Sequence record: KF147891.1 | Source of the DNA: Pseudomonas phage PaBG | Strand: one strand, 5' to 3' | Length of the DNA: 64,000 bases | In this document: in pieces, positions 4,107-63,665 of the stretch | Numbering within the stretch: position 1 is the first letter of the stretch | How the letters are laid out: each line of letters starts with the position of its first letter | The notes under the pieces: model-generated | Told to the model about the DNA's origin: nothing | What the model saw: only the letters and a program-made list of their open reading frames with translations | Databases searched by the model: none | Translations under genes and position numbers: made by a program

Positions 4107-4130
4107 GTTATTCCTTTACGAATGATTAGG

Positions 4131-4571: not shown

Positions 4572-4574
4572 TTG

Positions 4575-4835
4575 TCAGTTCTTCACAGTTTCGCTGACTG
4601 CCTTCTTATTGGCACAGTACAGCTCATACTTCCGAAGTTGTTCCAGCGCATTTTCGTAGCTAACCTTCTCGCCGATGGACTTCGTGTATTTCTCACGGAA
4701 GACGCAATGGCTTTCACCGACCACCGGAAAGCCTCCAACGGTCAGTGTGCAGACCGTGGTGGTGCCACGGTACTGGAAGGTTGTGTTCTCGATGAGACCA
4801 AGCAAGTAGTCCCTTGTTATCAGCTTTGCATCCAT
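4575..4835 (-). CDS. hypothetical small protein (86 aa)
   Basis: Minus-strand ORF overlapping the next gene by 16 nt. Confidence 0.35.
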   Translation of the reverse strand: MDAKLITRDYLLGLIENTTFQYRGTTTVCTLTVGGFPVVGESHCVFREKYTKSIGEKVSYENALEQLRKYELYCANKKAVSETVKN

Positions 4836-20917: not shown

Positions 20918-22849
20918 TTAGCGCTTACCGAGACCAGCCAGTGCGAGAGTCATACGCGCGGCGAAGTCTTGGGGCTGATGGGTGGACGCAGTGGCTTCTT
21001 CGCGCACCGTTTCCTTCTTCTCGACCTGCACCGGACGACCGAGTGGCATCGGGGCAGAAGACGCGTTGGCTTCTTCGCTGGCATTGGTGCCGGCGAGAGC
21101 CTCGGCGATTTCGTTCTGGGTTTCGAGGCTGTAACCCATGATCTGGTTCGCCTTGGCGAGCAGCATCGAGTGGTAGGCGTCGCTGTGTTGCGCGAAAGCC
21201 TTGGCCACCAGGGCGGAAGCGTTGTCGAGACCCACAGAGGACAGCGATTCGATCAGCGATTGCTGGATCGGGTTCGACTGGCCTTTGAAGAAGTTCTTGC
21301 TGTAGCCCAGGGCGGCAGTAGCGAGGGCGCCGTTCAGACGGTCCTGCAGTTCTGCTTTGTCGCGCTCGGCGCTGGCAGTGACTTCTTGGGTACGTGCAGC
21401 GACTTGCTGGGCAACCTCGGCCTGGACATAGTCCGCGACCTGGATTTCAGGCTTGATTTCCTGGAAGCCCATGTTCTCCAGCGCGGCAGGAACACCGTGC
21501 TGACTGGCTTGCGCTTTGAAGGCGCGGCCGAACACTTCGCTGTTGAAGATTTCCTTGTGCTTGTCGCAGGCGGAAGCCATTGCGATAGCCATCGGAACGC
21601 GGTCGTAGAAAGCGACCCAGGCGTTTTCGCCTTGAACGTTGGCATACGCCACGTCCAGCTTGCTCACGTCCATGTCGCCGCTCAGGGCAACGAAGGAGGC
21701 GGCAACGGCGACCATGCGCTCAGGCTCTTGGACGGAAGCAGTAGCTTCTTCGACACGAGGCTTACGATTGCGAGCGCGGCCGTTGTCGGCGTAGCGGACG
21801 CTGGAGACGGACAGGGTGAGGGAATCGTCTTCCTCATCATCCTCTTCTTCGTCTTCTTCGTCGAGGTCATCCTCGTCCTCATCGGACTCGTCTTCTTCCT
21901 CTTCCTCGTCGTCTTCTTCCTCGTCTTCTTCGGACTCATCGTCCTCTTCGTCGAGGTCGTCCTCTTCTTCCTCATCCTCATCCTCGTCGTCCTCATCGGA
22001 CGCCAGGGCAGGATTCAGATCGTCGCGGACTTCGCCAACATCGGAGTCGTCTTCGACACCGGCAGTGGCTTCTTCGTCTTCCGGGTCCAGCAGGCCGGAC
22101 GAGCAGCTCGGGCAGAAGACCGGCATGTCGTCGCTGGATACCACGTGGGCACCGCAGGCGCTGGAGGCGCAGACGAAGTGGTGGGCGTCCAGCTCGGCGC
22201 CGGAACTGGAGAGGGACTCCAGAATGCTCGGCTGCTGGTCAGCGACCACAGTGGCTTCATTGCCGGTGTACACGTCGTAGTTGGCGTCGCCAGCTACAGC
22301 GATCAGCACGTCGCCAGACTTGATGGTACGGGTTTCACCTTCACCGCTGATAGCGGCGCGGTAGGCGGCAACAGCTTCTTCCAGGGTCTTACCGGAGGCG
22401 ATGGCGCTTTCCTGAACCTGGCAGCCGTCGCATTCGCCGTCTTCTTCACCAGCCGACAGGGCAGCGATCTGCTCGTCGGTCAGGTCTTCGAGAACGGAGG
22501 CGCAGGCAGGGCAATGCTTGAGCAGCTCGGCGTCATCCGCGAGGATGTGCGCGTTGCAGCCGGCGGTGCACACGGTGTAGTTGACGTTGACGGCGTCGCT
22601 GTCGGACGACAGGAACTCCATTTGCTCGACCAGACCATCACCAACTTTCAGGTCATCCACGCCGGTCAGCGGGTTGAGCATGTTGATGTCGGAGCTAGCG
22701 GACGACAGGACGACGAAAGAATCGTCTGCGGTGTGCAGGGCCTGTGCGTCTTGGCCAGTGGCCACAGCGCGATAGAGTTCTTGAACGTCTTCCAGAGAGT
22801 TGCCGGCAACCACGATACCGCGGATGGGGGTACGTTGATGCTTGGACAT
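20918..22849 (-). CDS. putative scaffolding-like protein with two duplicated Cys4 zinc-ribbon modules, a 70-aa poly-Asp/Glu tract and a helical C-terminal domain
   Basis: Start placed at ATG ~22847-22849 (MSKHQRTPIRG) with GGAGA 8 nt upstream. Duplicated YTVCTAGCNAHILADDAELLKHCPACASVL and HFVCASSACGAHVVSSDDMPVFCPSCSSGL modules. DEDDEDEDEEEEDD...EEDD tract. Position immediately upstream of the head genes. Confidence 0.3.
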   Translation of the reverse strand: MSKHQRTPIRGIVVAGNSLEDVQELYRAVATGQDAQALHTADDSFVVLSSASSDINMLNPLTGVDDLKVGDGLVEQMEFLSSDSDAVNVNYTVCTAGCNAHILADDAELLKHCPACASVLEDLTDEQIAALSAGEEDGECDGCQVQESAIASGKTLEEAVAAYRAAISGEGETRTIKSGDVLIAVAGDANYDVYTGNEATVVADQQPSILESLSSSGAELDAHHFVCASSACGAHVVSSDDMPVFCPSCSSGLLDPEDEEATAGVEDDSDVGEVRDDLNPALASDEDDEDEDEEEEDDLDEEDDESEEDEEEDDEEEEEDESDEDEDDLDEEDEEEDDEEDDSLTLSVSSVRYADNGRARNRKPRVEEATASVQEPERMVAVAASFVALSGDMDVSKLDVAYANVQGENAWVAFYDRVPMAIAMASACDKHKEIFNSEVFGRAFKAQASQHGVPAALENMGFQEIKPEIQVADYVQAEVAQQVAARTQEVTASAERDKAELQDRLNGALATAALGYSKNFFKGQSNPIQQSLIESLSSVGLDNASALVAKAFAQHSDAYHSMLLAKANQIMGYSLETQNEIAEALAGTNASEEANASSAPMPLGRPVQVEKKETVREEATASTHQPQDFAARMTLALAGLGKR

Positions 22850-22997
22850 GTGGTTGTCTCCAAGGAAGTTTGCAGGGTTGGCAGGACCAACAGCCTGCGA
22901 CTTGTTATCGCAACTTCTGTCACGATACGCATAAATTGCAAAAAGCAAAAATGCGCTCCAAATCGCAGATTGTCAGCAAGTTGTATAAACAGCAGAA
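22850..22997 (-). promoter_or_regulatory. AT-rich intergenic region (candidate promoter for the head operon)
   Basis: About 148 bp non-coding and markedly AT-rich (ataaattgcaaaaagcaaaaatgcgc...ttgtataaacagcagaatta) in a GC-rich genome. One of very few gaps in the gene array. Confidence 0.3.
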
Positions 22998-23960
22998 TTA
23001 GGCCTTCTGCTGCTTGTTGCGCATCCGAGTGAGTTTCTCCAGCAACGCCTTGCGTTCAGCCTTGTTGGTGGCCTTACCGATGGTAGTAACAGCAATGCTT
23101 CCATCGAGGCGCCGGCGAGCACCTGCCTTGTTGCGGAAGACGTGAAGGTCCCCGTTCGGATGGATAACGATTGGCAGGTAACCAAAGGCGGTAGTCAGTA
23201 CGCCTTCGATGGCATAGGGCGTACGGCCGCCAGGATGCTTCTTGAACACGTTTTTGATTCGGAAACCGTATTCCTTGAACTCAGCTTTGATCGGATCGAC
23301 CACGCTCTTGGGTGCAGTTACCCAAGTAGACGGTTTCTTATCCGGCTTGGCTACCGAAGCCTTGGGTGTGATCGTCGCTTTCGGCTTGAACGTGTCCGCG
23401 GAGAGGCGCTTAACGGCACGATTCGGTCGCACACCCATACGGGATTCTGCGGCGGCTTTGTCCGGATATGGACCAGAGAGCGGCGTTGCAGGGCGCGTGG
23501 ACGTATCCACCACGAACCAAGCTTTGTCACCAGCGGGTGTTGCAGCTTTCGCCTTCGCTTTCAACAAAGCCAGTTTGTTCTCCAGCTTGGCACGATCTTC
23601 AACCTTCAAGCGAACTCCTGTGATCTTTCCGTCGAGGGCGGCTTTTATCAGGCCCTTTAAGTCGGTACGCTTGAATTTTTTCAGCTGGGTATCTGACAGA
23701 ATGTGCCGCTTGCTGCTCCACATGTTACGAAGGTCGCCATCAGCCAGATAGTGCGTATAGCACGGAGAGGCTGCGAAGCCTTCGATCTTGATGCGATCCA
23801 CTTTCGGGTCACCGATACCACGAGCTGCACTGGTGCGACGGGCGCCCAGTTTCCAGACATTCATGGAATCGATTTTGCCGTTCTTTTCCGTGTAAACGAT
23901 GTCACCTGACTGGAGCGCTTTCGCAGCCACCGCTTCCAGAAGATTGATTTTGATGAGCAT
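22998..23960 (-). CDS. basic Lys/Arg-rich protein (320 aa), possible nucleic-acid-binding protein
   Basis: Minus-strand ORF. Strongly basic central region (KAKAKAATPAGDK...KPKATITPKASVAKPDKKPS). Confidence 0.4.
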   Translation of the reverse strand: MLIKINLLEAVAAKALQSGDIVYTEKNGKIDSMNVWKLGARRTSAARGIGDPKVDRIKIEGFAASPCYTHYLADGDLRNMWSSKRHILSDTQLKKFKRTDLKGLIKAALDGKITGVRLKVEDRAKLENKLALLKAKAKAATPAGDKAWFVVDTSTRPATPLSGPYPDKAAAESRMGVRPNRAVKRLSADTFKPKATITPKASVAKPDKKPSTWVTAPKSVVDPIKAEFKEYGFRIKNVFKKHPGGRTPYAIEGVLTTAFGYLPIVIHPNGDLHVFRNKAGARRRLDGSIAVTTIGKATNKAERKALLEKLTRMRNKQQKA

Positions 23961-42967: not shown

Positions 42968-43953
42968 TTCCTCGATGCACGAACACCCACTGTGTTCTGC
43001 GGCATGTGCTCCATGTCAGGATCAACTCCTGACTTGGTAACAGTTGCCGCATAGTGTTTGGTCATTGCAGCGATGGCGTCTGGGATGCGCTTGCGGTTCA
43101 GAGCGAGAATCACCTCGTCGGCCGTCTTGATTGACAGGCGCATCAGCAGGGTATTCTTCATCTTCTCCGGGAGCGACATCTGGTTGACTATGGAGGTCAC
43201 TATGTTGAGGCGCGAGATTGGCACCAAAGCGTCAGGGATCGCTTCGTCCAACTCGATTTCCATGTCCAGACCATCACGCAATGCTGCTTCTACGAAATTA
43301 GAAGCATCGTGGTGTGCGAACAGAAGGGATGCCGACTCTAGCAGAGTGTTGCGCAGCACTTCCTCTTTGGCCTGTGTGCCCTCACGCACTTCGGCCAATA
43401 TGTGGTCTGGAACTTCGATTTCGTTCTCACCTTTGACCGGATACTCGGTTGGGCGATAGTTGATACCGTCGTGCATCTTGTTGTGTTGGTGCCCATCATC
43501 ATCTGGGAACTCAACTTCGATTTCCATTACCTCTGGGAAATCGTCATCGTCGTCTTGCGGAGGCACTGTGACGTATTCTGGCTCTGGAGCGACAGTCGGT
43601 TTTGGCTTAGAAACGACTGTGCCGAGAGTAGGCAGTTTCTTGGCCTTTTCTCGGCAGACAGTTGTTGGGATGGTAAGCTCAGGGTTATAACGAACCCCGT
43701 GGAAAGCCAAACTGGGGACATTGTCCCCAGTGTGGTTTTCGAGCATTCCGAAGAGAGCCGCACTAAGCGAGAGCGTAGTCTCCTGCGACTTCTTCCTCTT
43801 CGTCTCCGCTTCGTTTCTTTTTCTTGGATTTCCGAGGCTCATCGTCAGACTCGCTTCGTTTTCCTTTCTTGCCTTTCTTGGACTTGTCGCCTTTCCGTTT
43901 CTTGGAAGGCGCATCTTCTTCGTCATCCTCTGATGAGTAGTCAACCTGCGCAT
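42964..43953 (-). CDS. hypothetical protein upstream of terL (possible small terminase subunit by position). True start uncertain because the N-terminus overlaps dnaB.
   Basis: Position only. Acidic central region. Overlaps the helicase gene by 190 nt, so an internal start is likely. Confidence 0.25.
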   Translation of the reverse strand: MRRLTTHQRMTKKMRLPRNGKATSPRKARKENEASLTMSLGNPRKRNEAETKRKKSQETTLSLSAALFGMLENHTGDNVPSLAFHGVRYNPELTIPTTVCREKAKKLPTLGTVVSKPKPTVAPEPEYVTVPPQDDDDDFPEVMEIEVEFPDDDGHQHNKMHDGINYRPTEYPVKGENEIEVPDHILAEVREGTQAKEEVLRNTLLESASLLFAHHDASNFVEAALRDGLDMEIELDEAIPDALVPISRLNIVTSIVNQMSLPEKMKNTLLMRLSIKTADEVILALNRKRIPDAIAAMTKHYAATVTKSGVDPDMEHMPQNTVGVRASRK

Positions 43954-45229
43954 CGGGCATGTTCTCAGCGGTCATGATGTCGTACCGCTCAGCCAGCTCG
44001 AAGTTAAACACCTCACCGTCACGGTCTTTCTCAACCCGAATCGGCAAGATGCGCAGTTCACGTTGCTCTTGCTTGGTGTAGTTCCACTGCCACATGGTGT
44101 CGGCGTGTTCTTTGATACCCTTCGAGTAGCGCAGCTTATCTGTGGTATCGTCCAACTGAGCAAGGATAACCACAAGGCACTTGCTGCCTTCACGACTGAA
44201 TCGCTTGGACACGGCCGCAACTTCGGAGAGCTTGAACCACTGAGACTCGTGGTCCATGCCAGCGAGAAGGCCGATGTAGTCGATCATCACGATCTGGTAG
44301 CTGAACGGCTTGATCATGCGGTACACGTCGTCAATCGACATGGCTCGCGTTGGGCTGATCGTGGTGTAGACGATGCCGTGCTTCTGCCCGTGCTCACTGA
44401 ACAGACGGAAGGCTTCCTTGATCTTGTGCTTGTCGCCGGAGGTGAGCTTGTTCTCCTTAAACTTGTTGAACGGAATCTTCGTCAGGTGCGACGCAAGCCT
44501 TCGTGTCTCTTGTTCCTCGTCCATTTCCAAACTGATCCGACACACGGACTTGTTGGACTTGCGGTAGAGGTAAACACTCAGGTTCATCGCAACGGTCGAT
44601 TTACCACCGGACGTAGTTGCCGAGATAATGAACACGCCATGTTCTGGCAGGCCGCCGTTTCGCTTGTCGTACTCAGCATAGCCAGTCTTGATTCGCGGCT
44701 CGACCGTTCGGTTGATGATGTTGTCCACGATTTGCGCGGACGAGTCATTCGTACCGAAGTTGAGGAAGAACTGGTCATCGGCAAGGCTGGCGTTGGCGCG
44801 GCTCACAGCTTCCGTTACGTCGGAGAGCAGAGAATCAACGTCGATGTCTGGCTTGTCGAGAGCCGCGAAGCTGTCTTGGGCAATCGCGTAAATCGCACGA
44901 ATCTTGCGGTACCGCTCAAGTACATCCAGCAGGTTGCCTATCTGCTTTTTGTTCTTGCACGGCTTGGCCTTTTTAATCTGGGACTTCAATGCGTCCCGCA
45001 GGTCTTCATCGATTACAGGATCGGCAGCCAGGCTGTTGAAGTCAACGATTTCAAATCGCTTCTTGGCCAGGGTGTCGATCCGCTTGAATGCTTCGAGCGT
45101 AGGAGCATTGTGGAAATGCTCCTTACTCAGCTTACCGAGAAGGGTGCTGCGGACGCCAGCAGGGATGGACTCGTCGGTCAGTGTCTTGATGCACCGAACT
45201 TCGGAGTCCTGATCATATAGCAGCGCCAT
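43763..45229 (-). CDS. replicative DNA helicase (DnaB family)
   Basis: Walker A ATTSGGKSTVAMNL. H1a ISLEMDEEQ. MIDYIGLL (compare IVIDYLQLM). DnaB-like N-terminal domain. Lys/Asp-rich C-terminal tail. Confidence 0.8.
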   Translation of the reverse strand: MALLYDQDSEVRCIKTLTDESIPAGVRSTLLGKLSKEHFHNAPTLEAFKRIDTLAKKRFEIVDFNSLAADPVIDEDLRDALKSQIKKAKPCKNKKQIGNLLDVLERYRKIRAIYAIAQDSFAALDKPDIDVDSLLSDVTEAVSRANASLADDQFFLNFGTNDSSAQIVDNIINRTVEPRIKTGYAEYDKRNGGLPEHGVFIISATTSGGKSTVAMNLSVYLYRKSNKSVCRISLEMDEEQETRRLASHLTKIPFNKFKENKLTSGDKHKIKEAFRLFSEHGQKHGIVYTTISPTRAMSIDDVYRMIKPFSYQIVMIDYIGLLAGMDHESQWFKLSEVAAVSKRFSREGSKCLVVILAQLDDTTDKLRYSKGIKEHADTMWQWNYTKQEQRELRILPIRVEKDRDGEVFNFELAERYDIMTAENMPDAQVDYSSEDDEEDAPSKKRKGDKSKKGKKGKRSESDDEPRKSKKKKRSGDEEEEVAGDYALA

Positions 45230-49388: not shown

Positions 49389-50936
49389 TTACTCGTCGTC
49401 CGCTTCTTCGCTGATGTCATCGGCCTGACGGCCTTTGGTGTTCTCGGCCTTGATCGCCAACTTCAGGAGCTTGTAGCCTTCGCCGGAGCGAACTTGCTTA
49501 CGGCACCATTCGTACAGGCGGAACGGCTTGACCTTGAACTTGGTGCAGCCCTTCTTGATCAGATCGGGCGAACCATCGATCAGTGCCTTGAACTCGATCC
49601 ACGACACGGTCTTGCCTTCGAGCGGACCGGTGAGGAACTTGAGCTTCTTGCGATTGCCGCCGAGCTGCCCAGTGTTCTTGAGGTACTGATAGGCGTCCCA
49701 GACTCGGCAGAAGCCTTTCGCGTTACCATCGGCATCGCTCACGCAGATGCGCAGCGAAATCTCTGCGGCTTGCGGACCGCCGAGCTTGTTCTTGTGCACC
49801 TTGCATTTCAGGTAACGGTACTTGTCAACGCCTTCACCGGTGATGGTGTCTTCTTCCTCGAACTGGCCCTTGGCGTGGGGAACGCTGACCGAGGTCATCT
49901 TGAGGCGGCAGTCAGAGTAGAAACGCAGCGCCTTACCGCCAGGCTCTTGTTCGGTCGGGCCGTACATTGCCATGGGGATGTCACGCAACTGGTTGATGCC
50001 CAGTACGATGATCCGCTTGGAACGCATTGCACCCTTCACGCGCGGCAGGTTTGCAGCGTGCATACGAGCCTGGGCGCCGAGCGACTTGTCACCCTCGTCC
50101 TTATCGTCGGTCTGCTTCGGCACCATTGCCGGGTACGAGTCGACCAGCACGACGGCTTGGGGACTACCGTCGGGCATTTCGATTCGGAACTTGTTGGTCT
50201 TGCGGAAGTATTCCTTGTCGTACACACCGGCGAGTGCTTTCTGGTTCGCTTTGGTGTTCTCGTAGACGCAGTAGAACTTCCCGTTCTCCTGGATTTTGTC
50301 CGGGAGAATCTTTTCGAGCTTGGCGAGGTAGTTGTAGAAGTCCTCGCCGACCGACGGAGCGTAGTAACGAACGCGCGGTTGGATGACCCAGCCTTTGTCG
50401 TCCTTCACGCCGAACACGTTGTCAACGCTCAGACGCTTGCCGTGGTTCATGTAGCGGAAGATGTTCTCGGCGTAGTCGGCCTGGAACGAACCTTCGAAGT
50501 CGTGCAGCGACGCCTTGCCGTGGAACGTGCTGTCGGTTGCGATTGCACCCATGCACGTCGTGGCGAGCGTAGACTTACACGACTGCTCGCCGCCGAAGAA
50601 CGTGTACCAACCACCAGGCAGCAGGCCGCCAGCGAGTGCAACGTCGATGGAAAGCAGGCCAGTGGATAGGCGATCTTCCGATTCGCTAACCGCCATGGAG
50701 GTAAGGCCGAACTTCTTTTCCATGGAATCGATTTCGGCGTCGAGGTGAGCATACGGATCGAACGCAGCTACTGCCGTGTCGCCCTTCTTGCCTTTCTTCG
50801 CGGTACTCACGTCGATTTCGACATCACCGCCCTTGCCTTTGCCGCGCTTGCTCTTTGCGGGAGCGTCGGCTTCGGCCTTTTTCTTCTTTGCCATGTACGA
50901 ATCTCCGAAACGGGAACGGGTGGCCACATCGGCCAC
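49389..50936 (-). CDS. RecA/UvsX-family recombinase with Lys-rich N-terminal extension and acidic C-terminus
   Basis: LSTGLLSIDVALAGGLLPGGWYTFFGGEQSCKSTLATT (compare RecA [36 protein letters not shown]). Walker B AVVLVDSYPAM. N-terminal MAKKKKAEADAPAKSKRGKGKGG. Confidence 0.75.
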   Translation of the reverse strand: MADVATRSRFGDSYMAKKKKAEADAPAKSKRGKGKGGDVEIDVSTAKKGKKGDTAVAAFDPYAHLDAEIDSMEKKFGLTSMAVSESEDRLSTGLLSIDVALAGGLLPGGWYTFFGGEQSCKSTLATTCMGAIATDSTFHGKASLHDFEGSFQADYAENIFRYMNHGKRLSVDNVFGVKDDKGWVIQPRVRYYAPSVGEDFYNYLAKLEKILPDKIQENGKFYCVYENTKANQKALAGVYDKEYFRKTNKFRIEMPDGSPQAVVLVDSYPAMVPKQTDDKDEGDKSLGAQARMHAANLPRVKGAMRSKRIIVLGINQLRDIPMAMYGPTEQEPGGKALRFYSDCRLKMTSVSVPHAKGQFEEEDTITGEGVDKYRYLKCKVHKNKLGGPQAAEISLRICVSDADGNAKGFCRVWDAYQYLKNTGQLGGNRKKLKFLTGPLEGKTVSWIEFKALIDGSPDLIKKGCTKFKVKPFRLYEWCRKQVRSGEGYKLLKLAIKAENTKGRQADDISEEADDE

Positions 50937-50946
50937 CCGCAGTCAC

Positions 50947-52158
50947 TTACTCGTCGTCATCATCCCAGGCAGATTTCTTGCCCTTGCCGGATTTCTTCGA
51001 CTTCTTGTCCTTGGTGGATTTGTCGGACTTGGACTTCTTGCCCTTGTCAGACTTCTTGGACTTCTTCGGAGCTTCGTCCTCGTCGTCATCAGACGATTTC
51101 TTGGACTTCTTGGCCTTCTTCTTGGGCTTGTCGTCCTCGTCATCATCGTCGTCCGACTTGGACTTGGACTTCTTGCCCTTCTTCTTGGGCTTGTCATCCT
51201 CGTCCTCGTCGTCATCATCGTCGCTGAACGCCGGCTTGGACTTTTTCTTCTTCTTGGGCTTGTCGTCTTCGTCGTCATCGTCATCGGAGAACGCTTTGGA
51301 CTTCTTCTTGCCCTTCTTGCCTTTCTTCGGCTCGTCATCGTCACCGAGACTGTAGCCGTCACCGTCGTCGTCATCGTCCGGAGTATCACCGCCGACGATT
51401 TCCATGCGCTTGAAGTCTTCCAGCGCTTGCTTGGCGTCCATGCGGCCGGTGACATCGAGCAGGGTTTCGTCGAGCTTCCAGACCAGATATGCCTTCTCGT
51501 CGTCGGTGAGCGGAGTGCGCTCGTCCTTGTCGATGGAATACTTGTCGGTACCCGGAGCCTTCGGCTTGAACTTGACACGAATGTCGCAGCCGTACTTCTC
51601 GTGCGTCACGTCGAACGCTTTCTTGGCGCCGGACTTCTTGTCCTTGGCGGTGTTGCCTTCGCCGATCTCTTGGATACGGCTCGCCATGGTGGAAGTGAAG
51701 CGGCAGACGCGCACCGGAGTCCAGGACTTCGAGCGGATGTCCTTGAAGCCGGACTTCTTCTCTTCCTTGGTGTGCTCTGCCTTCTTGCGCGGCTCATCTT
51801 CCTGCAGCTCGCGGATGATGGCGTTGCCCAGGTAGAAGAACTCGTAGCGAGCGCTGCCGTCCTTGCCGTGAGTCAGGTCGCAGTACGGGCACTTGACTTC
51901 TTTGCCCTTCGCGTCTTTGCGCGGCTCGCCTTCGTGGTTCGGGTCGAACGCGATGCAGTAGCGCGGGATGGTGATTTCTTTCTTTTCCTTACCAGCAAGG
52001 ATGCTGATCCAGTGACGCTTCACTGGCAGAATCTTGCCGGGCAGGCAACGAATCTGCGACCACTCGTCAGCCGGAAACTTGTGCAGTTCGATCACTTCAT
52101 CCAGCTTGACCGAATCCTTGTTACCGGTGCGTGGTTGGAGAGTTCCAAATCCACTCAT
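50947..52158 (-). CDS. ssDNA-binding protein candidate (gp32-like Zn-binding N-terminal region) with long C-terminal (K-rich / D-rich) tandem repeat tail
   Basis: IRCLPGKILP and C/H cluster VKCPYCDLTHG (compare gp32 IRFLPSK and the Zn site). Adjacent to the recombinase. C-terminal repeats KKSKAFSDDDDDEDDKPKKK. Confidence 0.3.
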   Translation of the reverse strand: MSGFGTLQPRTGNKDSVKLDEVIELHKFPADEWSQIRCLPGKILPVKRHWISILAGKEKKEITIPRYCIAFDPNHEGEPRKDAKGKEVKCPYCDLTHGKDGSARYEFFYLGNAIIRELQEDEPRKKAEHTKEEKKSGFKDIRSKSWTPVRVCRFTSTMASRIQEIGEGNTAKDKKSGAKKAFDVTHEKYGCDIRVKFKPKAPGTDKYSIDKDERTPLTDDEKAYLVWKLDETLLDVTGRMDAKQALEDFKRMEIVGGDTPDDDDDGDGYSLGDDDEPKKGKKGKKKSKAFSDDDDDEDDKPKKKKKSKPAFSDDDDDEDEDDKPKKKGKKSKSKSDDDDDEDDKPKKKAKKSKKSSDDDEDEAPKKSKKSDKGKKSKSDKSTKDKKSKKSGKGKKSAWDDDDE

Positions 52159-53205: not shown

Positions 53206-53750
53206 TATCCAAGCAACTCCCGCAGTTCTTTCAACGACAGGTCGGCGTACAAGGTATCGTACAGCTTGATGTTCTGGTCAAGCGGAAGCGTTGGTTCGAT
53301 TCGTGGATCGTTACGTCGCTTCGGTGCGCCCTTTGGGGTTGGCAGGACAAACCCACCGCCGTTTCTAGTTTCAATCATCCTCGCGTAGTGATCGAAGTAG
53401 AGCATGACCCGATCGTGGCGTTCGCGCAACTGCACTTCTTCCTTGATCTTCTCGGCCAGCTTCTCTCGAAACTCCTCGACTTGTGCGCCCTTCTCCTGGT
53501 ACTGCCCGAGGAGCTTGATGTTGTTTGCGTTCACCTGTTCGAGGTTCGCGGCGACGCGCTGATTCTCGGCGATCAACGCTCGCGTCTGCTCGTTGGCTTC
53601 GGCCAGAGACGTAGCAATCCGCGCTTGACCCTCCTGCGCAATTTGCAGTTGAATCTGGAGCGCGGCAATCTTGATGTGCGGATTTTCTTGTGTGTCGCTC
53701 ATGTTCGTGCATCCGTAGTTACAGGTTCTGCTCCAGAGCAATCTTGGCAA
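53205..53750 (-). CDS. hypothetical coiled-coil protein (start probably MSDTQENPH)
   Basis: Heptad-like Q/A/E-rich sequence. Confidence 0.35.
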   Translation of the reverse strand: MPRLLWSRTCNYGCTNMSDTQENPHIKIAALQIQLQIAQEGQARIATSLAEANEQTRALIAENQRVAANLEQVNANNIKLLGQYQEKGAQVEEFREKLAEKIKEEVQLRERHDRVMLYFDHYARMIETRNGGGFVLPTPKGAPKRRNDPRIEPTLPLDQNIKLYDTLYADLSLKELRELLG

Positions 53751-54375
53751 GCGCGATGATGTGCTTGCAGCAGCCTGGTGCCAGACGAGGGTTGGTGAAG
53801 TTGGGTGCTTCGCCGTTGGAGTAGATCAAGCGACTAGCACCGACCGATGCGTTGGCGTACTCGAAGACGTAGACGAAGTTTTCGCAGGTGCACTGTACCA
53901 GCACCTTGTTGTGTCGATTGACTGGTAGCTTGTCGTCGTCACCCATGCCGATGATGTACGTCTCGTGGACTCGGCGCACGCGATTCTGCCGCCAGACATC
54001 GTAGGTGACCATGTGGCCCATGATCACAGGACGATGCGTCTTGGTAAACTTGCGCTCAATCTTCTTGGCTTCAACGTCAACCGCATTGTTGATGAACAGA
54101 CGCGGAGTGGCACGAATCAGTTGACGCAGCGTCATGCCTTTCTTCGACGCAGCAGTCTCAGGCAGTTGTCGGACAGGCATTGCCTCCAAGCGCTTGAGCC
54201 TGTAAGGCATGCCGGACGCCAGACGTTCTTTCCCGGGCCGCTTCGATTTGAACACGACTGCCTTCTTCGACTTCATGCGCTCTTGCGTCTTCTCCGCGGT
54301 GCGCTTGGCATCGGACTTACGCCCTGAGGTGTTCTTGCGACTTTTGGCAAGCGGCTTGTACGGCTTCTTCGCCAT
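53719..54375 (-). CDS. basic protein with C-terminal SWIM-type zinc-finger-like motif
   Basis: CTCENFVYVFEY...CCKHIIA (CxC...CxH). Lys/Arg-rich N-terminus. Confidence 0.35.
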   Translation of the reverse strand: MAKKPYKPLAKSRKNTSGRKSDAKRTAEKTQERMKSKKAVVFKSKRPGKERLASGMPYRLKRLEAMPVRQLPETAASKKGMTLRQLIRATPRLFINNAVDVEAKKIERKFTKTHRPVIMGHMVTYDVWRQNRVRRVHETYIIGMGDDDKLPVNRHNKVLVQCTCENFVYVFEYANASVGASRLIYSNGEAPNFTNPRLAPGCCKHIIALAKIALEQNL

Positions 54376-56233: not shown

Positions 56234-56975
56234 ACGTCACCAGATACTGCGACGTGACGGCAGCCGCTATTTGATCGTATGCGTTTACAGTTATTGCCAG
56301 ATGCTTGGCGTCGATGTTCAGCGCCTGTGCCATAGCACTGCAAAGGGCAGTGCGCGTGACGAGCTGTGGCTTTCCGTCCTGCGGCGCAAATCCAGCAACG
56401 ACATCCAGAATTTTCTCACCCTGCGGATGGGCAAAGATGTTGCGCATGATTGCAGAGTTGGACCCATCGTAGATGAGCGACCAAGCGTACTCGTAGGCGT
56501 ACTCCAGCGGTTGAACCAGCTGGTCACCTACAGCACGATCTGGGAACATGCGCAGGCCGAGGTCGTCGATATGGTTGATCAGGGATTCGATGAAGGAGAG
56601 TTCGACACGCGCCATGTCCAAGCACGGCTGTGCGATGATAAAGCGGGCGTCTGTTTCGAGAACAAAAGCCTCGGCCTGCAACTTGTTGGCCTGAGTGTCT
56701 TTGTTGTTCTGATAGTCGCGTATGGTCGCCTTGGCGTTAATCACCTTGGCCTGTGCGCGCTTCTGCTCAGCGAAGGCAGCGGCGATGGCGAACTGTCGGT
56801 CTTCTCGAAGTTCGTGGAGAATGCGATATGCTTCATCGATGATGAAGGCTTGGCCGAAAGACACGGCGTATATTTCGTACAGCGAGTGTTTCCAGTTCAT
56901 GCTTTGGTACCCACCATAAACAGAAAAAGCGCGCCTACTTACTTTCGTGTTGGGCGCGCTTTTTCTATGCTTCAA
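56139..56975 (-). CDS. hypothetical protein (start probably the internal MNWKH, ~56900)
   Basis: Minus-strand ORF. The upstream portion would run through the terminator. Confidence 0.35.
   Translation of the reverse strand: MKHRKSAPNTKVSRRAFSVYGGYQSMNWKHSLYEIYAVSFGQAFIIDEAYRILHELREDRQFAIAAAFAEQKRAQAKVINAKATIRDYQNNKDTQANKLQAEAFVLETDARFIIAQPCLDMARVELSFIESLINHIDDLGLRMFPDRAVGDQLVQPLEYAYEYAWSLIYDGSNSAIMRNIFAHPQGEKILDVVAGFAPQDGKPQLVTRTALCSAMAQALNIDAKHLAITVNAYDQIAAAVTSQYLVTFAASSESSTRRLYALEGKHDSNPSGDGGPSS
56922..56966 (-). terminator. intrinsic terminator (AAAAAGCGCGCC ... GGCGCGCTTTTT), potentially bidirectional
   Basis: Perfect 12-bp arms (8 GC-rich bp plus A/T runs) around a 16-nt loop, just downstream of the Lys-rich repeat protein gene. 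Confidence 0.55.
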
Positions 56976-56995
56976 TCACCGGCGCACGCCGACGA

Positions 56996-57655
56996 TCAAT
57001 CCAGGTCGTCGAAGTCCTCGAAGTCGTCATCCGACTTCGACTTCTTGTCCGCCTTCTTGGACTTCTTGCCTTCGGCTTTTTCAGCCTTGGCCTTCTTGGC
57101 TTTCTTGTCCTTCTTGGACTCGGCCTTGGCCGACTTGTCGGACTTCTTGCCTTCGGCTTTCTCGGCCTTGGCTTTCTTGTCCTTCTTCACCGGCTTGTCG
57201 GCCTTCTCGGCTTTCTTGGACTTCTTGCTGTCGCCCTTGTCAGCCTTGGCTTTCTTGCCTTCGGCCTTCTCGGCCTTGGCCTTCTTGTCGGACTTCTTGC
57301 CTTCGCCCTTGGCCGGCTTGTCAGCCTTCTCGGCTTTCTTGGACTTCTTGCCCTCGGCTTTCTCGGCCTTGGCTTTCTTGTCCTTCTTGGCCGGCTTGTC
57401 AGCCTTGGCCTTCGCCGGAGCGGCGGCGCCGTCAGCAGTCAGCTTCTCGACGGCCTTGATCTGGGCTTGGGTGCCTTTCAGGCTTTCCTGCGCGGTCTTG
57501 AGCGCTTTCTCCAGGGCAGCAACGGTGCCCTTGGCAGCACGTTCTTCCTTACGCAGGCGGGAAACTTCCTGCTTCTTGTTGATGAGTACGTCGTTCTTGG
57601 CCATGTTCTTCGATTCCAGATTTGGAGGAGTAAAGGGAGCTGCTTCTATGAGCAC
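56996..57655 (-). CDS. Lys/Ala-rich repeat protein (histone H1-like AKAEKAEGKKSKK repeats) with coiled-coil N-terminus and acidic DDDFEDFDDLD C-terminus
   Basis: Four to five tandem KKAKAEKAEGKKS(K/D)K units. Probable start MAKNDVLINKK. Confidence 0.5.
   Translation of the reverse strand: MLIEAAPFTPPNLESKNMAKNDVLINKKQEVSRLRKEERAAKGTVAALEKALKTAQESLKGTQAQIKAVEKLTADGAAAPAKAKADKPAKKDKKAKAEKAEGKKSKKAEKADKPAKGEGKKSDKKAKAEKAEGKKAKADKGDSKKSKKAEKADKPVKKDKKAKAEKAEGKKSDKSAKAESKKDKKAKKAKAEKAEGKKSKKADKKSKSDDDFEDFDDLD
57141..57187. repeat. 47-nt intragenomic repeat (copy A) encoding the KAEKAEGKKSK unit
   Basis: gacttcttgccttcggctttctcggccttggctttcttgtccttctt is identical at ~57141-57187 and ~58404-58450. 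A near-identical copy lies at ~57341-57387. Confidence 0.6.
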
Positions 57656-57701
57656 CCGACTTGTTGAGCAACTATGAATTAGCGTGCTCAGATTTTACGA
57701 C

Positions 57702-57728
57702 CGAGACGCAAACTTTGTTTACGCCTCG
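57702..57728 (-). other. 12-bp stem-loop (with two G-U pairs on the minus-strand RNA) in the gap between the polyacidic and Lys-rich genes
   Basis: cgagacgcaaac-ttt-gtttacgcctcg. No strong U-run, so it is a possible processing/attenuation site rather than a canonical terminator. Confidence 0.3.
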
Positions 57729-57793
57729 GGTGACGCTTAGGAAGGTGCGGCCGCTCGCATGTTGCTAGGCCGCGCGCCTACCGGGCCGAGGTA

Positions 57794-58258
57794 TCAGTCG
57801 AAGTCTTCTTCGTCTTCTTCGTCTTCTTCCTCGTCGTCGTCTTCTTCTTCCTCGTCGTCCTCGTCCTCGTCCTCGTCGTCGTCCTCGTCGTCGTCATCTT
57901 CCTCGTCGTCGTCTTCTTCTTCCTCGTCGTCTTCCTCGTCGTCCTCGTCCTCGTCGTCTTCTTCCTCGTCGTCCTCGTCGTCGTCCTCGTCTTCTTCTTC
58001 CTCGTCGTCCTCGTCCTCGTCGTCTTCTTCCTCGTCGTCCTCGTCTTCTTCTTCCTCGTCGGACTCATCGTCCTCCTCGGTCACGTCGGGAGCCTGCTCG
58101 GCGACGAGTGCGATGGCCTCGTCGATGGTGTCGGCACCGGCTTCCTTCATCTGTTGCAGCAGCGAGAGCAGCGCGATGGCCAGGCCGGCGGTCAGGTCGA
58201 AGTTGATTTCTTTGGCTTTGGACTTGGTGGATTTCTTCTTGGCCATGATGGGCTCCAA
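57794..58258 (-). CDS. polyacidic protein: basic/helical N-terminal 50 aa followed by ~100 aa of pure Asp/Glu
   Basis: MAKKKSTKSKAKEINFDLTAGLAIALLSLLQQMKEAG... then EEDDESDEEEEDEDDEEEDD... ending EEDFD. Encoded by a (GA[CG]/GAA)n trinucleotide tract. Confidence 0.5.
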   Translation of the reverse strand: MEPIMAKKKSTKSKAKEINFDLTAGLAIALLSLLQQMKEAGADTIDEAIALVAEQAPDVTEEDDESDEEEEDEDDEEEDDEDEDDEEEEDEDDDEDDEEEDDEDEDDEEDDEEEEDDDEEDDDDEDDDEDEDEDDEEEEDDDEEEDEEDEEDFD

Positions 58259-58348
58259 TTGAGTGAGTTGTTTCGAGTTTCACGTTCGAGCAGCCACAGC
58301 GCTCGTTGCAGTGGCTGTTTACACTTTTGTAAGACCGCAGATCAGGGC

Positions 58349-58945
58349 TTAGTCGTCCAGATCGTCGTCGTCTTCGTCGGCCTTTTTCTTCTTGCCCTTC
58401 TTGGACTTCTTGCCTTCGGCTTTCTCGGCCTTGGCTTTCTTGTCCTTCTTGGACTTCTTGCCTTCACCGCCGGCAGCGGCTTCGTCTTCGGCGCGAACTT
58501 CGATGCGAACATCGTCGCGTTGATACAGCTTCACAGTTTCACCGGAAGCGGTCTGGATGGTCATGATGCCACCCTTGTCTTCGACCAGGCGACCGACAAC
58601 TTCGCGGATGGCGACTTCGCGGAACACGGTCACAGCGGAGACTTCGCCGACGGCGCCGAACACTTCGACGACATCGCTACGGGAGAAGCGGCTGACCACA
58701 GTCTTCTGCGAAGCGCTGGTACGCTTGTGGCGCAGCATGACCGCGTCGGTGCCGTCTTGAACCAGGAAGCCACCGATTTCGACAGCTTGGCGAGCGAACA
58801 CGGTGAACGTGAACATCGCGGACTTGGCCTTGAAGCTGGTCTTGGCGCTGATGTTCTTCAGGCGCTTGGCGATCTTGTCGGTACGGGACAGGCGATTCGC
58901 GGTATTGCGCTTTTTCGTTTTGTCTTTTGCCATGGTGTGTATCAC
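58349..58945 (-). CDS. basic protein with C-terminal KAEKAEGKKSKK repeat and acidic DEDDDDLDD end
   Basis: Shares the 47-nt DNA repeat with 56996..57655. Probable start MAKDKTKKRN. Confidence 0.45.
   Translation of the reverse strand: MIHTMAKDKTKKRNTANRLSRTDKIAKRLKNISAKTSFKAKSAMFTFTVFARQAVEIGGFLVQDGTDAVMLRHKRTSASQKTVVSRFSRSDVVEVFGAVGEVSAVTVFREVAIREVVGRLVEDKGGIMTIQTASGETVKLYQRDDVRIEVRAEDEAAAGGEGKKSKKDKKAKAEKAEGKKSKKGKKKKADEDDDDLDD
58404..58450. repeat. 47-nt intragenomic repeat (copy B)
   Basis: Identical to ~57141-57187. Confidence 0.6.
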
Positions 58946-60012
58946 TCACCTTCTTTTTCGAGAGAGAAAGCGACGAGGAAATCGCCGCCGTTAAACAGGG
59001 CATCAGCGTAGTCTTCACGCTCGAAGCCCGGGGCGCCTACGAACTCGCCACCTTCAACCGCGTTGCGGTAGCTGAGGATTTCGGCTTCCGGATCGTTGCT
59101 ACGAATCCAGTTGAACGCATCCAGCACCGATTGCTTCATCAGGTCCTGGCTGTAGAAGCCGACGTACACTGCGGACGGCATGCCCGCCTTGATGCCAGCC
59201 TGTTCGAGGTACTTGAAGTGGGTCTTCAAGGTCTTCTCGAACTTGTCCGACGCTTCACGCAGCAGCAGCGGGATGCGCAGGTGTACGATGAACTTCACAG
59301 TAACCGAAACGGTCTTGGTCTGCGCAGTCGGCTCGCCGGTCTGGTTGACCGACAGCAGCGGACGAACGCGGATGTACTCGTCCGCCGGCAGCATCACGGC
59401 ACCGTCTTCGCCAGCCAGTTCGATGTAGTGCTGACCGTCGGCGCTCGGGAAGTTCGCGTACAGGGTGCTCTGCGCAGCCTTCAGGTGTTCTTCGATCAGG
59501 TTCTCGACGACCAGGGCACCGGTGTCAGCAGTAACGACCAGACGTTCTTCGTTGGCCATCAGCTTGCTCAGCACGCCGACGAACTCGCGCAGCGGTTCAC
59601 GCAGGACGCCGATACGGCCGGAGCGTTCGTTGAGCTTGGAGAGCGACTGGATCAGGTTGAGCTTCTGGTCGTTGAACTCGAAGTTCGCGGTATCGATCAG
59701 CGCGTCCTGCACTTCGTCGTGGAACAGGTTGACCACGAAGTTCAGCTCGGGGTTGACGACCAGGCGCACGATGCCTTCGACACCTGCGGTTTCCTGCAGA
59801 ATCTGCGAGAAGCTGCGCGGCTGGTATTCGTCTTCGACGTCCACACCGTCGGCACCATCGACATCGGCCATTTCGACTTCTTCGATGTTGCGGGTCGGCT
59901 CGACCGCGATGCCGGCCGGGGCGCCACGTTCTTCTGCGGACGGTGCGGCTTCGCTGGCGAGTTGCTGGCTCTGACGCTCGGCATCGCCGATCAGGTTTTC
60001 TTGGTTACTCAT
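58942..60012 (-). CDS. hypothetical protein (356 aa), acidic N-terminus
   Basis: Minus-strand ORF. Confidence 0.4.
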   Translation of the reverse strand: MSNQENLIGDAERQSQQLASEAAPSAEERGAPAGIAVEPTRNIEEVEMADVDGADGVDVEDEYQPRSFSQILQETAGVEGIVRLVVNPELNFVVNLFHDEVQDALIDTANFEFNDQKLNLIQSLSKLNERSGRIGVLREPLREFVGVLSKLMANEERLVVTADTGALVVENLIEEHLKAAQSTLYANFPSADGQHYIELAGEDGAVMLPADEYIRVRPLLSVNQTGEPTAQTKTVSVTVKFIVHLRIPLLLREASDKFEKTLKTHFKYLEQAGIKAGMPSAVYVGFYSQDLMKQSVLDAFNWIRSNDPEAEILSYRNAVEGGEFVGAPGFEREDYADALFNGGDFLVAFSLEKEGE

Positions 60013-61412
60013 GGTTTGTCTCCTTTAGACTTCGTGTACGAGTAGCAACGCTTGATGTTCACACTTTCTGCGTATGGCCGAATGGTGAGTCCGGTCACGG
60101 TGTACTGATCATCGTAGGCTGCCTCGAACTTGGCAATGATATTATCGAGTGCAGATTTAGTAATCGCACCAGACGTATCTACCTCGTATCCGAGAATGTC
60201 AACCAACGGATGGCTCAGAGAGCGGAACCCAAGCGACTGCAAGTGAACCGCCGGCTTGATCCGCATCTGCGGACCCATGAGCTTGCCACGCTGGTACACA
60301 AACATACCGGTCGCAACAAACTGCAGGTAGTGCTCAGGCAGTGTCTTTACATACTCCGCCCGGGCCGCTTCGCGCTCTGCATTGCCGTTGGCGATTCGCG
60401 CCTCGAGCTTTGCTTTACGCTTTTCCAACTTACTGATCTTCTCGGCAAACTTTGGCTTCGCGCTGCGAGACGCATAAGATTCCAGCTTGCGAACTGTGGA
60501 TTGCAGCTCCTCCTTCATATCGGCGATAACAAAGGTGAAGTCATCGATACGGTTGCGGTCGACAGTAGCCATGTACTCGCGCAGCATATCGCTGACCGTT
60601 TTCGCATTCGGGAAGTGCTTGCGCAACTCCGAGCGCATTTTCTTCGGCACCGCCAAGGTGCCTTGAACCACGAACAGCTCGGCGCCGTGGCCGAATGGCG
60701 TGTAGTTCTGAATTACCTTGCGATAACCATTGTGCTGACCAAACTCCAGGGGAATGCCCAGGTGCCGTAGCTGGTCAAGCGTGTAGACAATCTTCTCGCC
60801 AATATGCAGGAAGGCCGCATACAGGTGAGCGTGCGTATTGCCTTCGACCTCGTATGCGCGATACACGAGGTTGATGCGAACACCGGAGAGCTTGGGTGTG
60901 ATGCACACGCCTTTTTCCAGCTTCTGGTCGGTGTACGCTTTCGGGCGGTTGCACTTGCGCAAAACTTCGTCGATGGTCTGTTCGATGGATTCCGGCCACA
61001 CCAAGCCGTCACGGGCACGCAACGCGCTTTCTCGGCGATCAGCCTTGAGTTGCTTGATCGCATCCTCGTAGGTCACGTTGTCGGCAGCATTCAAACCGGC
61101 AAACGCAGCCCATGCCTCGGCATGGGTTTGGCATTGCGGGAGACAGAAGCCAGAGTTGTACATCAGGCTTACGGTCGCCATGTCGGGCAAGTTGCCATTG
61201 ATGGCGCCCAGTACGATTTCGTCGAGCGCCTTAACGGTAAGGGCAGGCACTACGTCAATCTCCTCATCCGACAGGCGACCGTGCAGTACGAACCTGCAAT
61301 GGTAAAGCGTGTCGATGTTCGTGGAGCGTACCAGTCGATTGCGCTGGTACAGGTTGTTCAAAACTGCGTTCAGTGCGTCACTATTCATAACCACCTCCTG
61401 AGCGCAATTCAC
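60009..61412 (-). CDS. hypothetical protein (467 aa), weak resemblance to covalent nucleotidyltransferases (ligase-like)
   Basis: PKLSGVRINLVY resembles ligase motif I KxDGxR but with Ser in place of Asp. HGAELFVVQGTL could be motif III/IV-like. Confidence 0.2.
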   Translation of the reverse strand: MNCAQEVVMNSDALNAVLNNLYQRNRLVRSTNIDTLYHCRFVLHGRLSDEEIDVVPALTVKALDEIVLGAINGNLPDMATVSLMYNSGFCLPQCQTHAEAWAAFAGLNAADNVTYEDAIKQLKADRRESALRARDGLVWPESIEQTIDEVLRKCNRPKAYTDQKLEKGVCITPKLSGVRINLVYRAYEVEGNTHAHLYAAFLHIGEKIVYTLDQLRHLGIPLEFGQHNGYRKVIQNYTPFGHGAELFVVQGTLAVPKKMRSELRKHFPNAKTVSDMLREYMATVDRNRIDDFTFVIADMKEELQSTVRKLESYASRSAKPKFAEKISKLEKRKAKLEARIANGNAEREAARAEYVKTLPEHYLQFVATGMFVYQRGKLMGPQMRIKPAVHLQSLGFRSLSHPLVDILGYEVDTSGAITKSALDNIIAKFEAAYDDQYTVTGLTIRPYAESVNIKRCYSYTKSKGDKP

Positions 61413-62327: not shown

Positions 62328-63665
62328 TTACTCGGCCTCGACTTCTTCCATGCGGGCGACGTCGGCGATGGACTTGCTGCGGAACTTCAGGCTGTCCAGG
62401 TTGAGCAGCTTGACAGTTTCGTCGGCTTCGTCGTAACCAACCAGCAGGAACTCATGCTTATCTTCCTTGCCCTTGAGTACGGTCTGGCCGGGCACCATGT
62501 CGTCACCGAACTTGTCCTCGATTTCATCGCTGGCGAGATACGCCTCGACAAAACCGCGAACTTTGCCTTCGCTCAGGTTCGGAGCACGCTCGCGGATGGC
62601 GTTGACCATGTCTTCGACGCTGACGGCGTCTTCGGACTCATCTTCTTCCTCCTCGTCGTCCTCGTCCTCGTCTTCGGACTCATCGTCCTCGTCGTCTTCC
62701 AGCTCACCATCGTCATCGCCGACTTCATCTTCGTCCTCGTCGCCAGCCTCCAGTTCGACGCCAGCCTCATCTGCGGCTTCGCGGATGGCGTCATCGTCGT
62801 TGTCGTCGTCTTCGCGGATGAGGGCGATAACCGCCTCGGCGTCCATCGACTTCTTGGTGGTCAGGCCGAGCTTGCGCGCGATCTTCTTGAGGTCGGCCAC
62901 GTCGAGGTCGCCGAGAAGTTCGTCTTCCAGGCCTTCATCGTCCTCGTCGTCATCGTCCAGACCTTCATCGTCCAGGCTGTCGTCGTCCTCGTCGTCATCA
63001 GGTGCGACGTCGGTGGCTTCGCGGTGTTCGCGGATGTACGCCTTGATTTCCTTGTCGGACTTGCTGCCCGGCATCAGGGTGATGGTGACACGGAGCGCGT
63101 TCTCGTTGAACTGCGCACCTACAGCGACCGGTACCACGTCGTACACGCCGCTGGCCGACAGTGCATTGCCAAGCAGTGCAAACGCATCGTTGCTGATCGC
63201 TTCGGCGTTACGCTGATCGAACGCTTCGACCAGTTTCTTCTTGGCAGCCTTCGGCTTGGACTTCGGCGCTTCGGGCTCGTCTTTCTGCTTGGAGGTACGC
63301 GCACGCTTGCCAGCAGGTGCACCTTCTGCCTCGGCTGCTTCGCGCTTCAAGCGACGGCGACGCTGGCGTGCGGTTTCACCGGCGGGTGCATCGTCATCGT
63401 CTTTCACCTTACGGTTGCGGGCGCGAGCCGGCTTGGTCGGCTCTTCCTTGGCGGCTTTCTTGCCTTTCTTCGGAGTGTCGAAGAAGAAGCCGGGGCCGCG
63501 CTTGTAGATGCCGTCGATGTGGACGCGAGTGCCGTCCTCGGTGATAGCTTCGCCAGTCTTCACCACGATCTTCTCGACGCGGTGACGCTCACCGTCGATG
63601 GTGATGCGCTTGCCTTGCATGCCTTTCAGGTCGTCTTTAGTGATAGCCATGTTCTGAGTCCTCAT
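62328..63665 (-). CDS. acidic/basic low-complexity protein (445 aa) with SAP/Rho-N-like helix (LDVADLKKIARKLGL)
   Basis: N-terminal basic region (KKGKKAAKEEPTKPARARNRK...RQRRRRLKR). Two long Asp/Glu tracts. DLKKIARKLGLTTKK motif. Probable start MAITKDD. Confidence 0.45.
   Translation of the reverse strand: MRTQNMAITKDDLKGMQGKRITIDGERHRVEKIVVKTGEAITEDGTRVHIDGIYKRGPGFFFDTPKKGKKAAKEEPTKPARARNRKVKDDDDAPAGETARQRRRRLKREAAEAEGAPAGKRARTSKQKDEPEAPKSKPKAAKKKLVEAFDQRNAEAISNDAFALLGNALSASGVYDVVPVAVGAQFNENALRVTITLMPGSKSDKEIKAYIREHREATDVAPDDDEDDDSLDDEGLDDDDEDDEGLEDELLGDLDVADLKKIARKLGLTTKKSMDAEAVIALIREDDDNDDDAIREAADEAGVELEAGDEDEDEVGDDDGELEDDEDDESEDEDEDDEEEEDESEDAVSVEDMVNAIRERAPNLSEGKVRGFVEAYLASDEIEDKFGDDMVPGQTVLKGKEDKHEFLLVGYDEADETVKLLNLDSLKFRSKSIADVARMEEVEAE

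Follow-up and report, generated by a model that had tools for sequence, protein, structure and literature searches.

How does a jumbo phage use proteins that consist of little but charge? Pseudomonas phage PaBG (KF147891.1) raises this question with three adjacent minus-strand genes, A (PaBG_00126), B (PaBG_00125) and C (PaBG_00124), which encode two lysine-rich proteins and, between them, one made mostly of aspartate and glutamate. We analyzed them within a stretch of 64,000 nucleotides (hereafter the window; window position equals PaBG genome position minus 32000), following a first-pass annotation that had described a histone-H1-like cluster around a poly-acidic protein. The genes are already in the published genome, and the open reading frame (ORF) sequences are identical to the published PaBG proteins, all three of which are labeled 'hypothetical' (GenBank file, PMC7412058 supplement); the trio as a module is newly described here. 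Its order is invariant across about 75 jumbo-phage genomes and contigs, which supports the view that it is a real functional unit. Our preferred reading, to which we give a probability of roughly 0.4, is that C and A would coat DNA while B serves as their polyanionic counter-partner, much as prothymosin-alpha does for histone H1, possibly in a replication condensate.

Anatomy of three polyelectrolyte proteins

The claim that three adjacent genes lie here was borne out, in that the minus-strand ORFs are present, their composition is far past chance and their orthologues are conserved. Conserved orthologues rule out the idea that these are not real genes, and the ORFs on the opposing plus strand are mirror images of low-complexity sequence. 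The ORFs had been placed correctly and their 5′ limits had not; because the true starts are internal ATGs (MAKNDV, MAKKKSTK and MAKDKTKK), the genes have the shorter limits listed in Table 1. PaBG has been assigned to the 'Lupandier group' of jumbo myoviruses, which includes Lu11, NCTB and several Dickeya and Erwinia phages (PMC7412058), and the window DNA has no close nucleotide relative in the phage collection.

Protein C starts with a coiled coil of ~57 residues (57434..57604), continues as a lysine-rich repeat tail of ~130 residues (about 57035..57427; K 40%, A 21%, D+E 22%; net charge +0.18 per residue) and closes with an acidic-aromatic tip, SDDDFEDFDDLD (56999..57034). The tandem repeats expected of this protein are there, as four copies of KAEKAEGKK, a unit that occurs once in A. 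Weak Pfam matches of the C N-terminus are to coiled-coil families only, and the protein matches phrog_36478, a PHROG without assigned function. The N-termini of the PaBG and Erwinia types are homologous (hhalign probability 96%, E 2.7e-9). Across 14 IMG/VR loci that encode a relative of A (contigs of 19 kb to 314 kb), C carries a net charge of +14 to +31, with tails at +0.16 to +0.23 per residue and composed of K 32-41%, A 11-35% and D+E 12-22%; an acidic tip with two aromatic residues closes 14/14 C proteins.

Protein B is, as predicted, about 100 acidic residues behind a short basic helix: D and E make up 100 of its 150 residues, and the nearly pure D/E tract is 92 residues long (57797..58078) and ends EEDFD. 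It begins with a basic tag, MAKKKSTKSKAK, and a small helical head that extends to about residue 50, and both tag and head are present in 14/14 orthologues, where the nearly pure tract varies from 53 to 105 residues. Net charge over the relatives is −72 to −106, that is, charge is conserved and sequence is not, and in ten of the 14 B proteins an F or W lies close to the C-terminal end. No fitting family emerged from Pfam, PHROG and NCBIfam scans, a word-indexed homologue search with the 57-residue head returned no candidate, and the published label 'similar to Utp1' is a low-complexity artifact. In Erwinia-type B proteins and in gp131, a neighboring product, the helical modules look SAP/HeH-like, with two of ten matching Pfam SAP at a sub-threshold E of about 0.014-0.024. 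GAC accounts for 96% of the Asp codons in B versus 66% in large reference genes. As a separate observation, three of the five PaBG tRNAs, tRNA-Lys(ttt), tRNA-Asp(gtc) and a second tRNA-Lys (genome 122606..122843; PMC7412058 supplement), read Lys or Asp, the amino acids that dominate the charged tracts.

Protein A contains a confidently predicted all-beta domain (residues 40-150, 58484..58816) with an invariant RHK motif, followed by a tail that the structure model predicts to be disordered. It had been said to end in the lysine unit, which is incorrect, as KAEKAEGKK is followed by the acidic tip ADEDDDDLDD. The layout recurs in distant members as beta domain, charged linker and acidic tip with a terminal aromatic residue; tips in the family read DDDDEF, DEDDF and EDDWE, and PaBG A ends DDDDLDD. 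Bacterial SSB and T7 gp2.5 likewise join a folded domain through a disordered linker to an acidic tip that ends in an aromatic residue, and these tips dock replication partners. The A family shares with them the disordered linker and the acidic tip with a terminal aromatic or hydrophobic residue, and the tips of C and of the SSB-like gp117 are similar; A differs in that it is built on another fold, and in that the linkers of these phage proteins are extreme polyelectrolytes. No OB-fold DNA-binding domain was found in A, whose fold seems nearer to Sm/SH3-like small barrels. Core identity between the PaBG type and the Lu11 and Erwinia types is just 31-34%. The family is small, amounting to about 100 clusters (50% identity) within 1.84 billion proteins, and a scan of 185,579 species-representative genomes found no relatives of A in cellular genomes. 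No PDB sequence significantly matched the A profile, gp123, gp127 or gp128. In tblastn, a distant A member found no match and its beta domain alone retrieved only noise, and a structure search of BFVD with A returned family members only.

The two basic genes were also claimed to share an identical 47-nucleotide repeat. The exact DNA is shared and is 48 nucleotides long, compared with a codon-shuffled maximum of 15. Because exact A/C identity in the relatives extends over only 9-21 nucleotides, the repeat points to recent exchange in the PaBG line, and we rejected it as a conserved feature of the trio since it is PaBG-specific.

Conservation, genomic setting and expression signals

The A-B-C order is found in Lu11 (0160-0162), HRDY3, the Erwinia phages Yoloswag, pEa_SNUABM_5 and Y3, Yersinia phage fHe-Yen9-02 and one metagenomic relative, as well as at all 14 IMG/VR loci, where 11 trios are complete and three contigs end after B; A is present in 57 records of Erwinia, Dickeya and Yersinia phages. 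Order and presence are thus kept among relatives that are just ~30% identical. On a distant 142-kb contig (L025), an acid tract of 85 residues is fused to A itself (4001..4837) and a C-like gene comes directly after it, which argues that A, B and C are functionally linked. The A protein of this contig has an Arg/Lys/Ala/Pro-rich N-terminal arm as well as its acid tail, and the contig is without a separate B gene.

These data bear on the simplest alternative, namely that there is no joint mechanism and that the three are independent accessory proteins with generic solubility or spacer 'bristles', their adjacency being historical. Charged low-complexity tails are indeed widespread, being found on at least ten proteins within the window, the repeats evolve fast, the charge of the A tail is not conserved, and the 48-nucleotide identity is recent and local. 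Such independence is hard to reconcile with an order and presence of all three genes that do not vary at ~30% identity, with how tightly charge is conserved in B as a whole and, as net charge per residue, in the C tail, with the fusion of an acid tract to A in a distant lineage or with the conserved tip motifs, and we consider it very improbable.

In every lineage the trio is placed among DNA-metabolism genes. A 5′-3′ exonuclease and topoisomerase II lie upstream of it in PaBG, and a sigma factor, the SSB-like protein, RecA and DnaB downstream, an arrangement that is the same in Lu11. The Erwinia, Yersinia and L025 lineages have gyrase B or topoisomerase II one to three genes past the trio, and in L025 a PC4-like gene is located two genes upstream of A. 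Several of these neighbors are themselves charged: the tails that the first-pass annotation ascribed to RecA, the SSB-like protein, DnaB and the 62328.. protein (gp131) are real, with extreme charge tracts on all four. In gp117 the tail (50975..51294, minus strand) is encoded by 63-nucleotide tandem repeats that specify some five rounds of the alternating blocks DDDDDEDDKPKKKKKSK; its Lu11 orthologue has a tail of the same design with the ending SDWDDDE, and SSB, RecA and DnaB all retain their charged tails and tips in Lu11. Alternating K-blocks and D/E tracts of nucleolar proteins, and the KKE/D domains of snoRNPs, drive condensate organization (bioRxiv 10.1101/2022.11.05.515292; PMC11528048). 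The tails of gp117, DnaB and C share this block grammar; the difference is that the precedents belong to eukaryotic nuclear bodies. For gp131 the comparison with Pfam SAP gave an E of 0.024, which is below threshold. The ends of gp131 resemble Lu11_0154, and its modules resemble Erwinia-type B proteins.

A promoter-like motif with a TGTAAA core precedes B in PaBG (Table 1), and the Lu11 record has two annotated 'middle/late promoter' motifs, CTGTAAATA with core TGTAAA, likewise upstream of B. The A-B spacer contains one to three copies of TGTAAA at 13/14 loci, and the PaBG window has ten such sites on the coding strand, five of them intergenic versus 0.7 expected. Copies of this annotated motif in Lu11 are also found ahead of the genes for DNA polymerases I and III and of the gene that occupies the SSB position. 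Upstream of C, an inverted repeat TGAGCA-N14-TGCTCA surrounds a −10-like TAAT (57665..57690, minus strand), and the Erwinia and Yersinia relatives (L022, L023 and L004) have another palindrome, TGTAGACGTA...TACGTCTACA, at the equivalent position of the B-C spacer. That these operator-like repeats differ in sequence yet hold the same place suggests that expression of C is regulated. The terminator after C folds at −35 kcal/mol (76 nucleotides; z = −4.96), a value that 0/200 shuffles attained, and a hairpin with a T-run follows C in most related loci. With promoter cores before B and a terminator after C, B and C are each punctuated on their own, which would be expected if their products are abundant. 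The five intergenic TGTAAA sites (58323, 49265, 38171, 2521 and 1594, all on the minus strand) share the context A-R-S-TGTAAA-Y and are a candidate PaBG promoter set.

A proposed DNA-organizing module and its alternatives

The first-pass annotation could not match the trio to a described phage system, and neither could we. Pfam, NCBIfam and PHROG scans placed A, B, C, their non-repeat pieces and their neighbors in no annotated family, and we found no description of such a system in the PaBG paper, in a 2026 jumbo-phage review or in targeted literature searches. The 'histone-H1-like' label holds for composition and not for domain structure: the Linker_histone winged-helix domain is absent from A, B and C in Pfam scans even at E up to 0.1-1, and the C tails, at 12-22% acidic residues, are not the K-, A- and P-rich, almost acid-free tails of the H1 type. 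Pfam and NCBIfam likewise gave no match of A, B or C to HU/IHF, H-NS or other nucleoid-associated families.

The closest functional analogy for C and B is nevertheless the pair of H1 and prothymosin-alpha, two disordered proteins that bind each other very tightly, stay disordered in the complex and allow the polyanion to speed removal of H1 from DNA (Heidarsson et al. 2022; a 2018 paper). The likeness lies in the pairing of a disordered lysine/alanine-rich polycation with a disordered polyanion. On the other hand, C has a coiled coil in place of a winged helix, B has about twice the charge of prothymosin-alpha and a basic/helical head, and the phage proteins are products of adjacent genes. Bacterial H1-like proteins include PhaF and AlgP of Pseudomonas and Hc1 and Hc2 of Chlamydia. 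PhaF combines an N-terminal oligomerizing helical domain with a C-terminal lysine/alanine/proline repeat tail that binds DNA independently of sequence, a two-part layout that C shares by analogy only: its repeat unit is AKAEKAEGKKSKK or AKAEKPAKAGKK and not the AAKP or KPAA of PhaF and AlgP, it adds an acidic-aromatic tip and an adjoining polyanion gene, and Pfam and NCBIfam revealed no phasin or other defined domain in C.

In our preferred and most economical reading, the trio would be a module particular to this lineage, whose three polyelectrolyte proteins, abundant and largely disordered, would be made alongside the replication machinery and would organize phage DNA. Oligomerization of C through its coiled coil would array several polycationic tails for sequence-independent binding and bridging of DNA, in the manner of the H1 C-terminal domain, PhaF and AlgP, and A would bind nucleic acid through its basic arm and the small beta-barrel domain with the RHK motif. 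B, a polyanion of near-constant charge (about −90) held by its small basic/helical head, would act as the counter-polyelectrolyte, keeping C and A soluble and off RNA and ribosomes, tuning or reversing their binding to DNA by competition as prothymosin-alpha does for H1, and perhaps stripping DNA ahead of packaging. Together with DNA the trio may form a complex coacervate, into which SSB, RecA and DnaB could partition by way of their K-block/acid-block tails and acidic-aromatic tips. DNA binding, the interaction of B with C and A, and the formation of a condensate are steps that we infer. The fullest version, in which a jumbo lineage without a phage nucleus has a membrane-less, charge-driven DNA compartment, a tunable A/B/C coacervate ('phage chromatin') that recruits SSB, RecA and DnaB by their tails and tips, strikes us as doubtful; the ligase-fold neighbor gp128 may also take part in such a coacervate.

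Several observations weigh against a DNA-coating role with B as counter-partner. The acidic residues in the C tails set them apart from H1. The A tail is basic in most relatives and poly-acidic in three (L015-L017, A at about 4001..4708), which means that A need not be a polycation. The summed charge of A, B and C at 1:1:1 is unbalanced, at −47 to −99. Finally, the promoter class annotated in Lu11 is compatible with late expression, and the shallow virion proteome discussed below leaves room for a packaged trio.

The last two points lead to the possibility that these are packaged head proteins, with C and A neutralizing packed DNA and B serving as an acidic prohead-core protein or DNA surrogate that is displaced when DNA enters. 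T4 provides the precedent, as its basic internal proteins IPI-III stay with the DNA and its prohead has acidic core proteins, with a capsid-targeting sequence and cleavage by the prohead protease. PaBG resembles T4 in that a large myovirus encodes both basic and acidic proteins, the promoter class is middle/late, and genes for abundant late proteins typically have such separate punctuation and strong terminators; moreover, the window mixes head and replication genes. The T4 proteins differ from the trio in that they are not low-complexity repeats, and A, B and C are not among the 14 identified PaBG virion proteins. That proteome was read by matrix-assisted laser desorption/ionization (MALDI) from 14 Coomassie bands, which makes it shallow and biased against such sequences, and since lysine-rich and poly-acidic proteins yield tryptic peptides that are hard to detect, absence from the list is weak evidence. 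No structural-protein flags were found in the examined stretches of the Lu11 and Y3 records. What makes packaging quite unlikely in our view is the setting: the neighbors are replication and topology genes in every lineage, the same tails occur on the non-virion proteins SSB, RecA and DnaB, and the capsid module already has an acid-tract protein, gp82, and a basic virion protein, gp83. That the head module has this acid/basic pair of its own is also a point in favor of DNA organization.

A different role for B is suggested by SPO1 Gp44, whose N-terminal domain (residues 1-55) is folded and binds DNA, and whose acidic domain is disordered, with 57% D/E over 67 residues and no basic residues; the acidic domain of this host-takeover product binds the beta and beta′ subunits of RNA polymerase (PMC8208478). 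Set against this description, the layout of B matches in 14/14 orthologues, each with basic tag and small head and with charge kept where sequence is not. B could accordingly be an anchored, flexible DNA mimic in host takeover or anti-defense, its head docking on DNA or a partner and its poly-acid tract filling the DNA channels of host RNA polymerase, nucleoid proteins and restriction or defense nucleases, while C and A would condense or silence the host nucleoid. The parallel has limits, in that Gp44 lacks lysine-rich partners and that the tract of B, nearly pure D/E over 53-105 residues, is far more extreme than those of known mimics. Structured mimics such as Ocr and ArdA, folded proteins on which surface carboxylates imitate the DNA backbone, offer no closer match, as Pfam detected none for B and its tract is without hydrophobic residues. 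Furthermore, B is preceded by a motif annotated as middle/late, the trio lies among replication genes and not in an early region, and takeover leaves unexplained both the two invariant lysine-rich flanking genes and the fusion of an acid tract to A. We therefore regard this explanation as unlikely.

If the trio does organize DNA, no dedicated polycation/polyanion pair would have been described in a phage before it, and jumbo phages would have a second way to compartmentalize replication, beside the protein-shelled phage nucleus. The trio would also be a natural and very simple system in which to study disordered complexes of ultra-high affinity and enzyme recruitment coded by charge, and, were a coacervate to form, a bacterial-virus counterpart of H1/prothymosin-alpha or of nucleolar organization. 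If B instead works as a flexible DNA mimic, no known example would be as extreme, and its inhibition of DNA-binding proteins would be broad. Either way, three 'hypothetical proteins' in about 75 genomes can be annotated as a single module.

Neighboring genes and other features

Table 1. Positions of the trio, its neighbors and associated signals in the PaBG window
Feature	Position	Strand	Description
Gene A, PaBG_00126	58349..58933	−	194 residues; basic arm, all-beta domain, lysine-rich tail, acidic tip
Gene B, PaBG_00125	57794..58246	−	150 residues, net charge −93; basic tag, helical head, D/E tract
Gene C, PaBG_00124	56996..57604	−	202 residues; coiled coil, lysine-rich repeat tail, acidic-aromatic tip
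48-nucleotide exact repeat	57140..57187 (in C), 58403..58450 (in A)		codes KKDKKAKAEKAEGKKS
Promoter-like motif AAAAGTGTAAACA	58316..58328	−	72 nucleotides upstream of B; contains TGTAAA core
B-C spacer	57605..57793	−	hairpin after B at about 57703..57727; sigma-70-like site 57692..57721
Intrinsic terminator after C	56920..56968	−	GC-rich hairpin between A-run and T-run
DnaB-like gp110	43763..45229	−	C-terminal tail mixing K-blocks and D/E-blocks
RecA-like gp116	49389..50894	−	lysine-rich N-terminal extension, acidic C-terminus
SSB-like gp117	50947..52158	−	C-terminal tail of alternating D/E and K blocks, ends SAWDDDDE
gp127	58942..60012	−	356 residues, net charge −31; stop 8 nucleotides from A start
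gp128	60009..61388	−	LigA adenylation-domain fold; stop overlaps gp127 start (ATGA)
gp131	62328..63650	−	long acid tracts flanking helix-extension-helix-looking motif DLKKIARKLGLTTKKSMDAEAVIALI

Immediately upstream of A, gp127 is syntenic in Lu11 (0159) and HRDY3 and has no Pfam, NCBIfam or PDB sequence match. The next gene product, gp128, does have the fold of the LigA adenylation domain. Its motif I (KxDG) reads TPKLSGVR in PaBG, and in 17 relatives the lysine is replaced by R, T, D or I and the D by S, A, K or T. Because neither residue is conserved, we did not file gp128 as a ligase. From the gene junctions, A is predicted to be translationally coupled to this putatively catalytically dead ligase-fold protein.

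On the other side of the trio, gp120 (53719..54375, minus strand) has a strongly basic N-terminus, MAKKPYKPLAKSRKNTSGRK, and a CxC...CCKH pattern resembling a SWIM-type zinc finger; it is conserved in Lu11_0166 and has no Pfam match at E 0.001.

The second acid/basic pair of the window, gp82 and gp83, lies in the capsid module (20918..23960, minus strand). The acidic member, gp82, carries a net charge of about −100, a 100-residue D/E tract and two CxxC...CxxC motifs, and its gene is just upstream of those for gp81 and the major capsid protein; it is misannotated as 'ATPase / 60S ribosomal L2-A / DNA pol phi-like' and may be a scaffold or core protein. The basic member, gp83, has a net charge of +36 and is a proven virion protein. 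Relatives of the major capsid protein (19056..20162, minus strand) occur in 96 phage records, among them RSL1, BcepSauron, Motura, Peetri-like Pseudomonas putida phages and, distantly, Bacillus phage G, a set wider than the phages shown with the trio.

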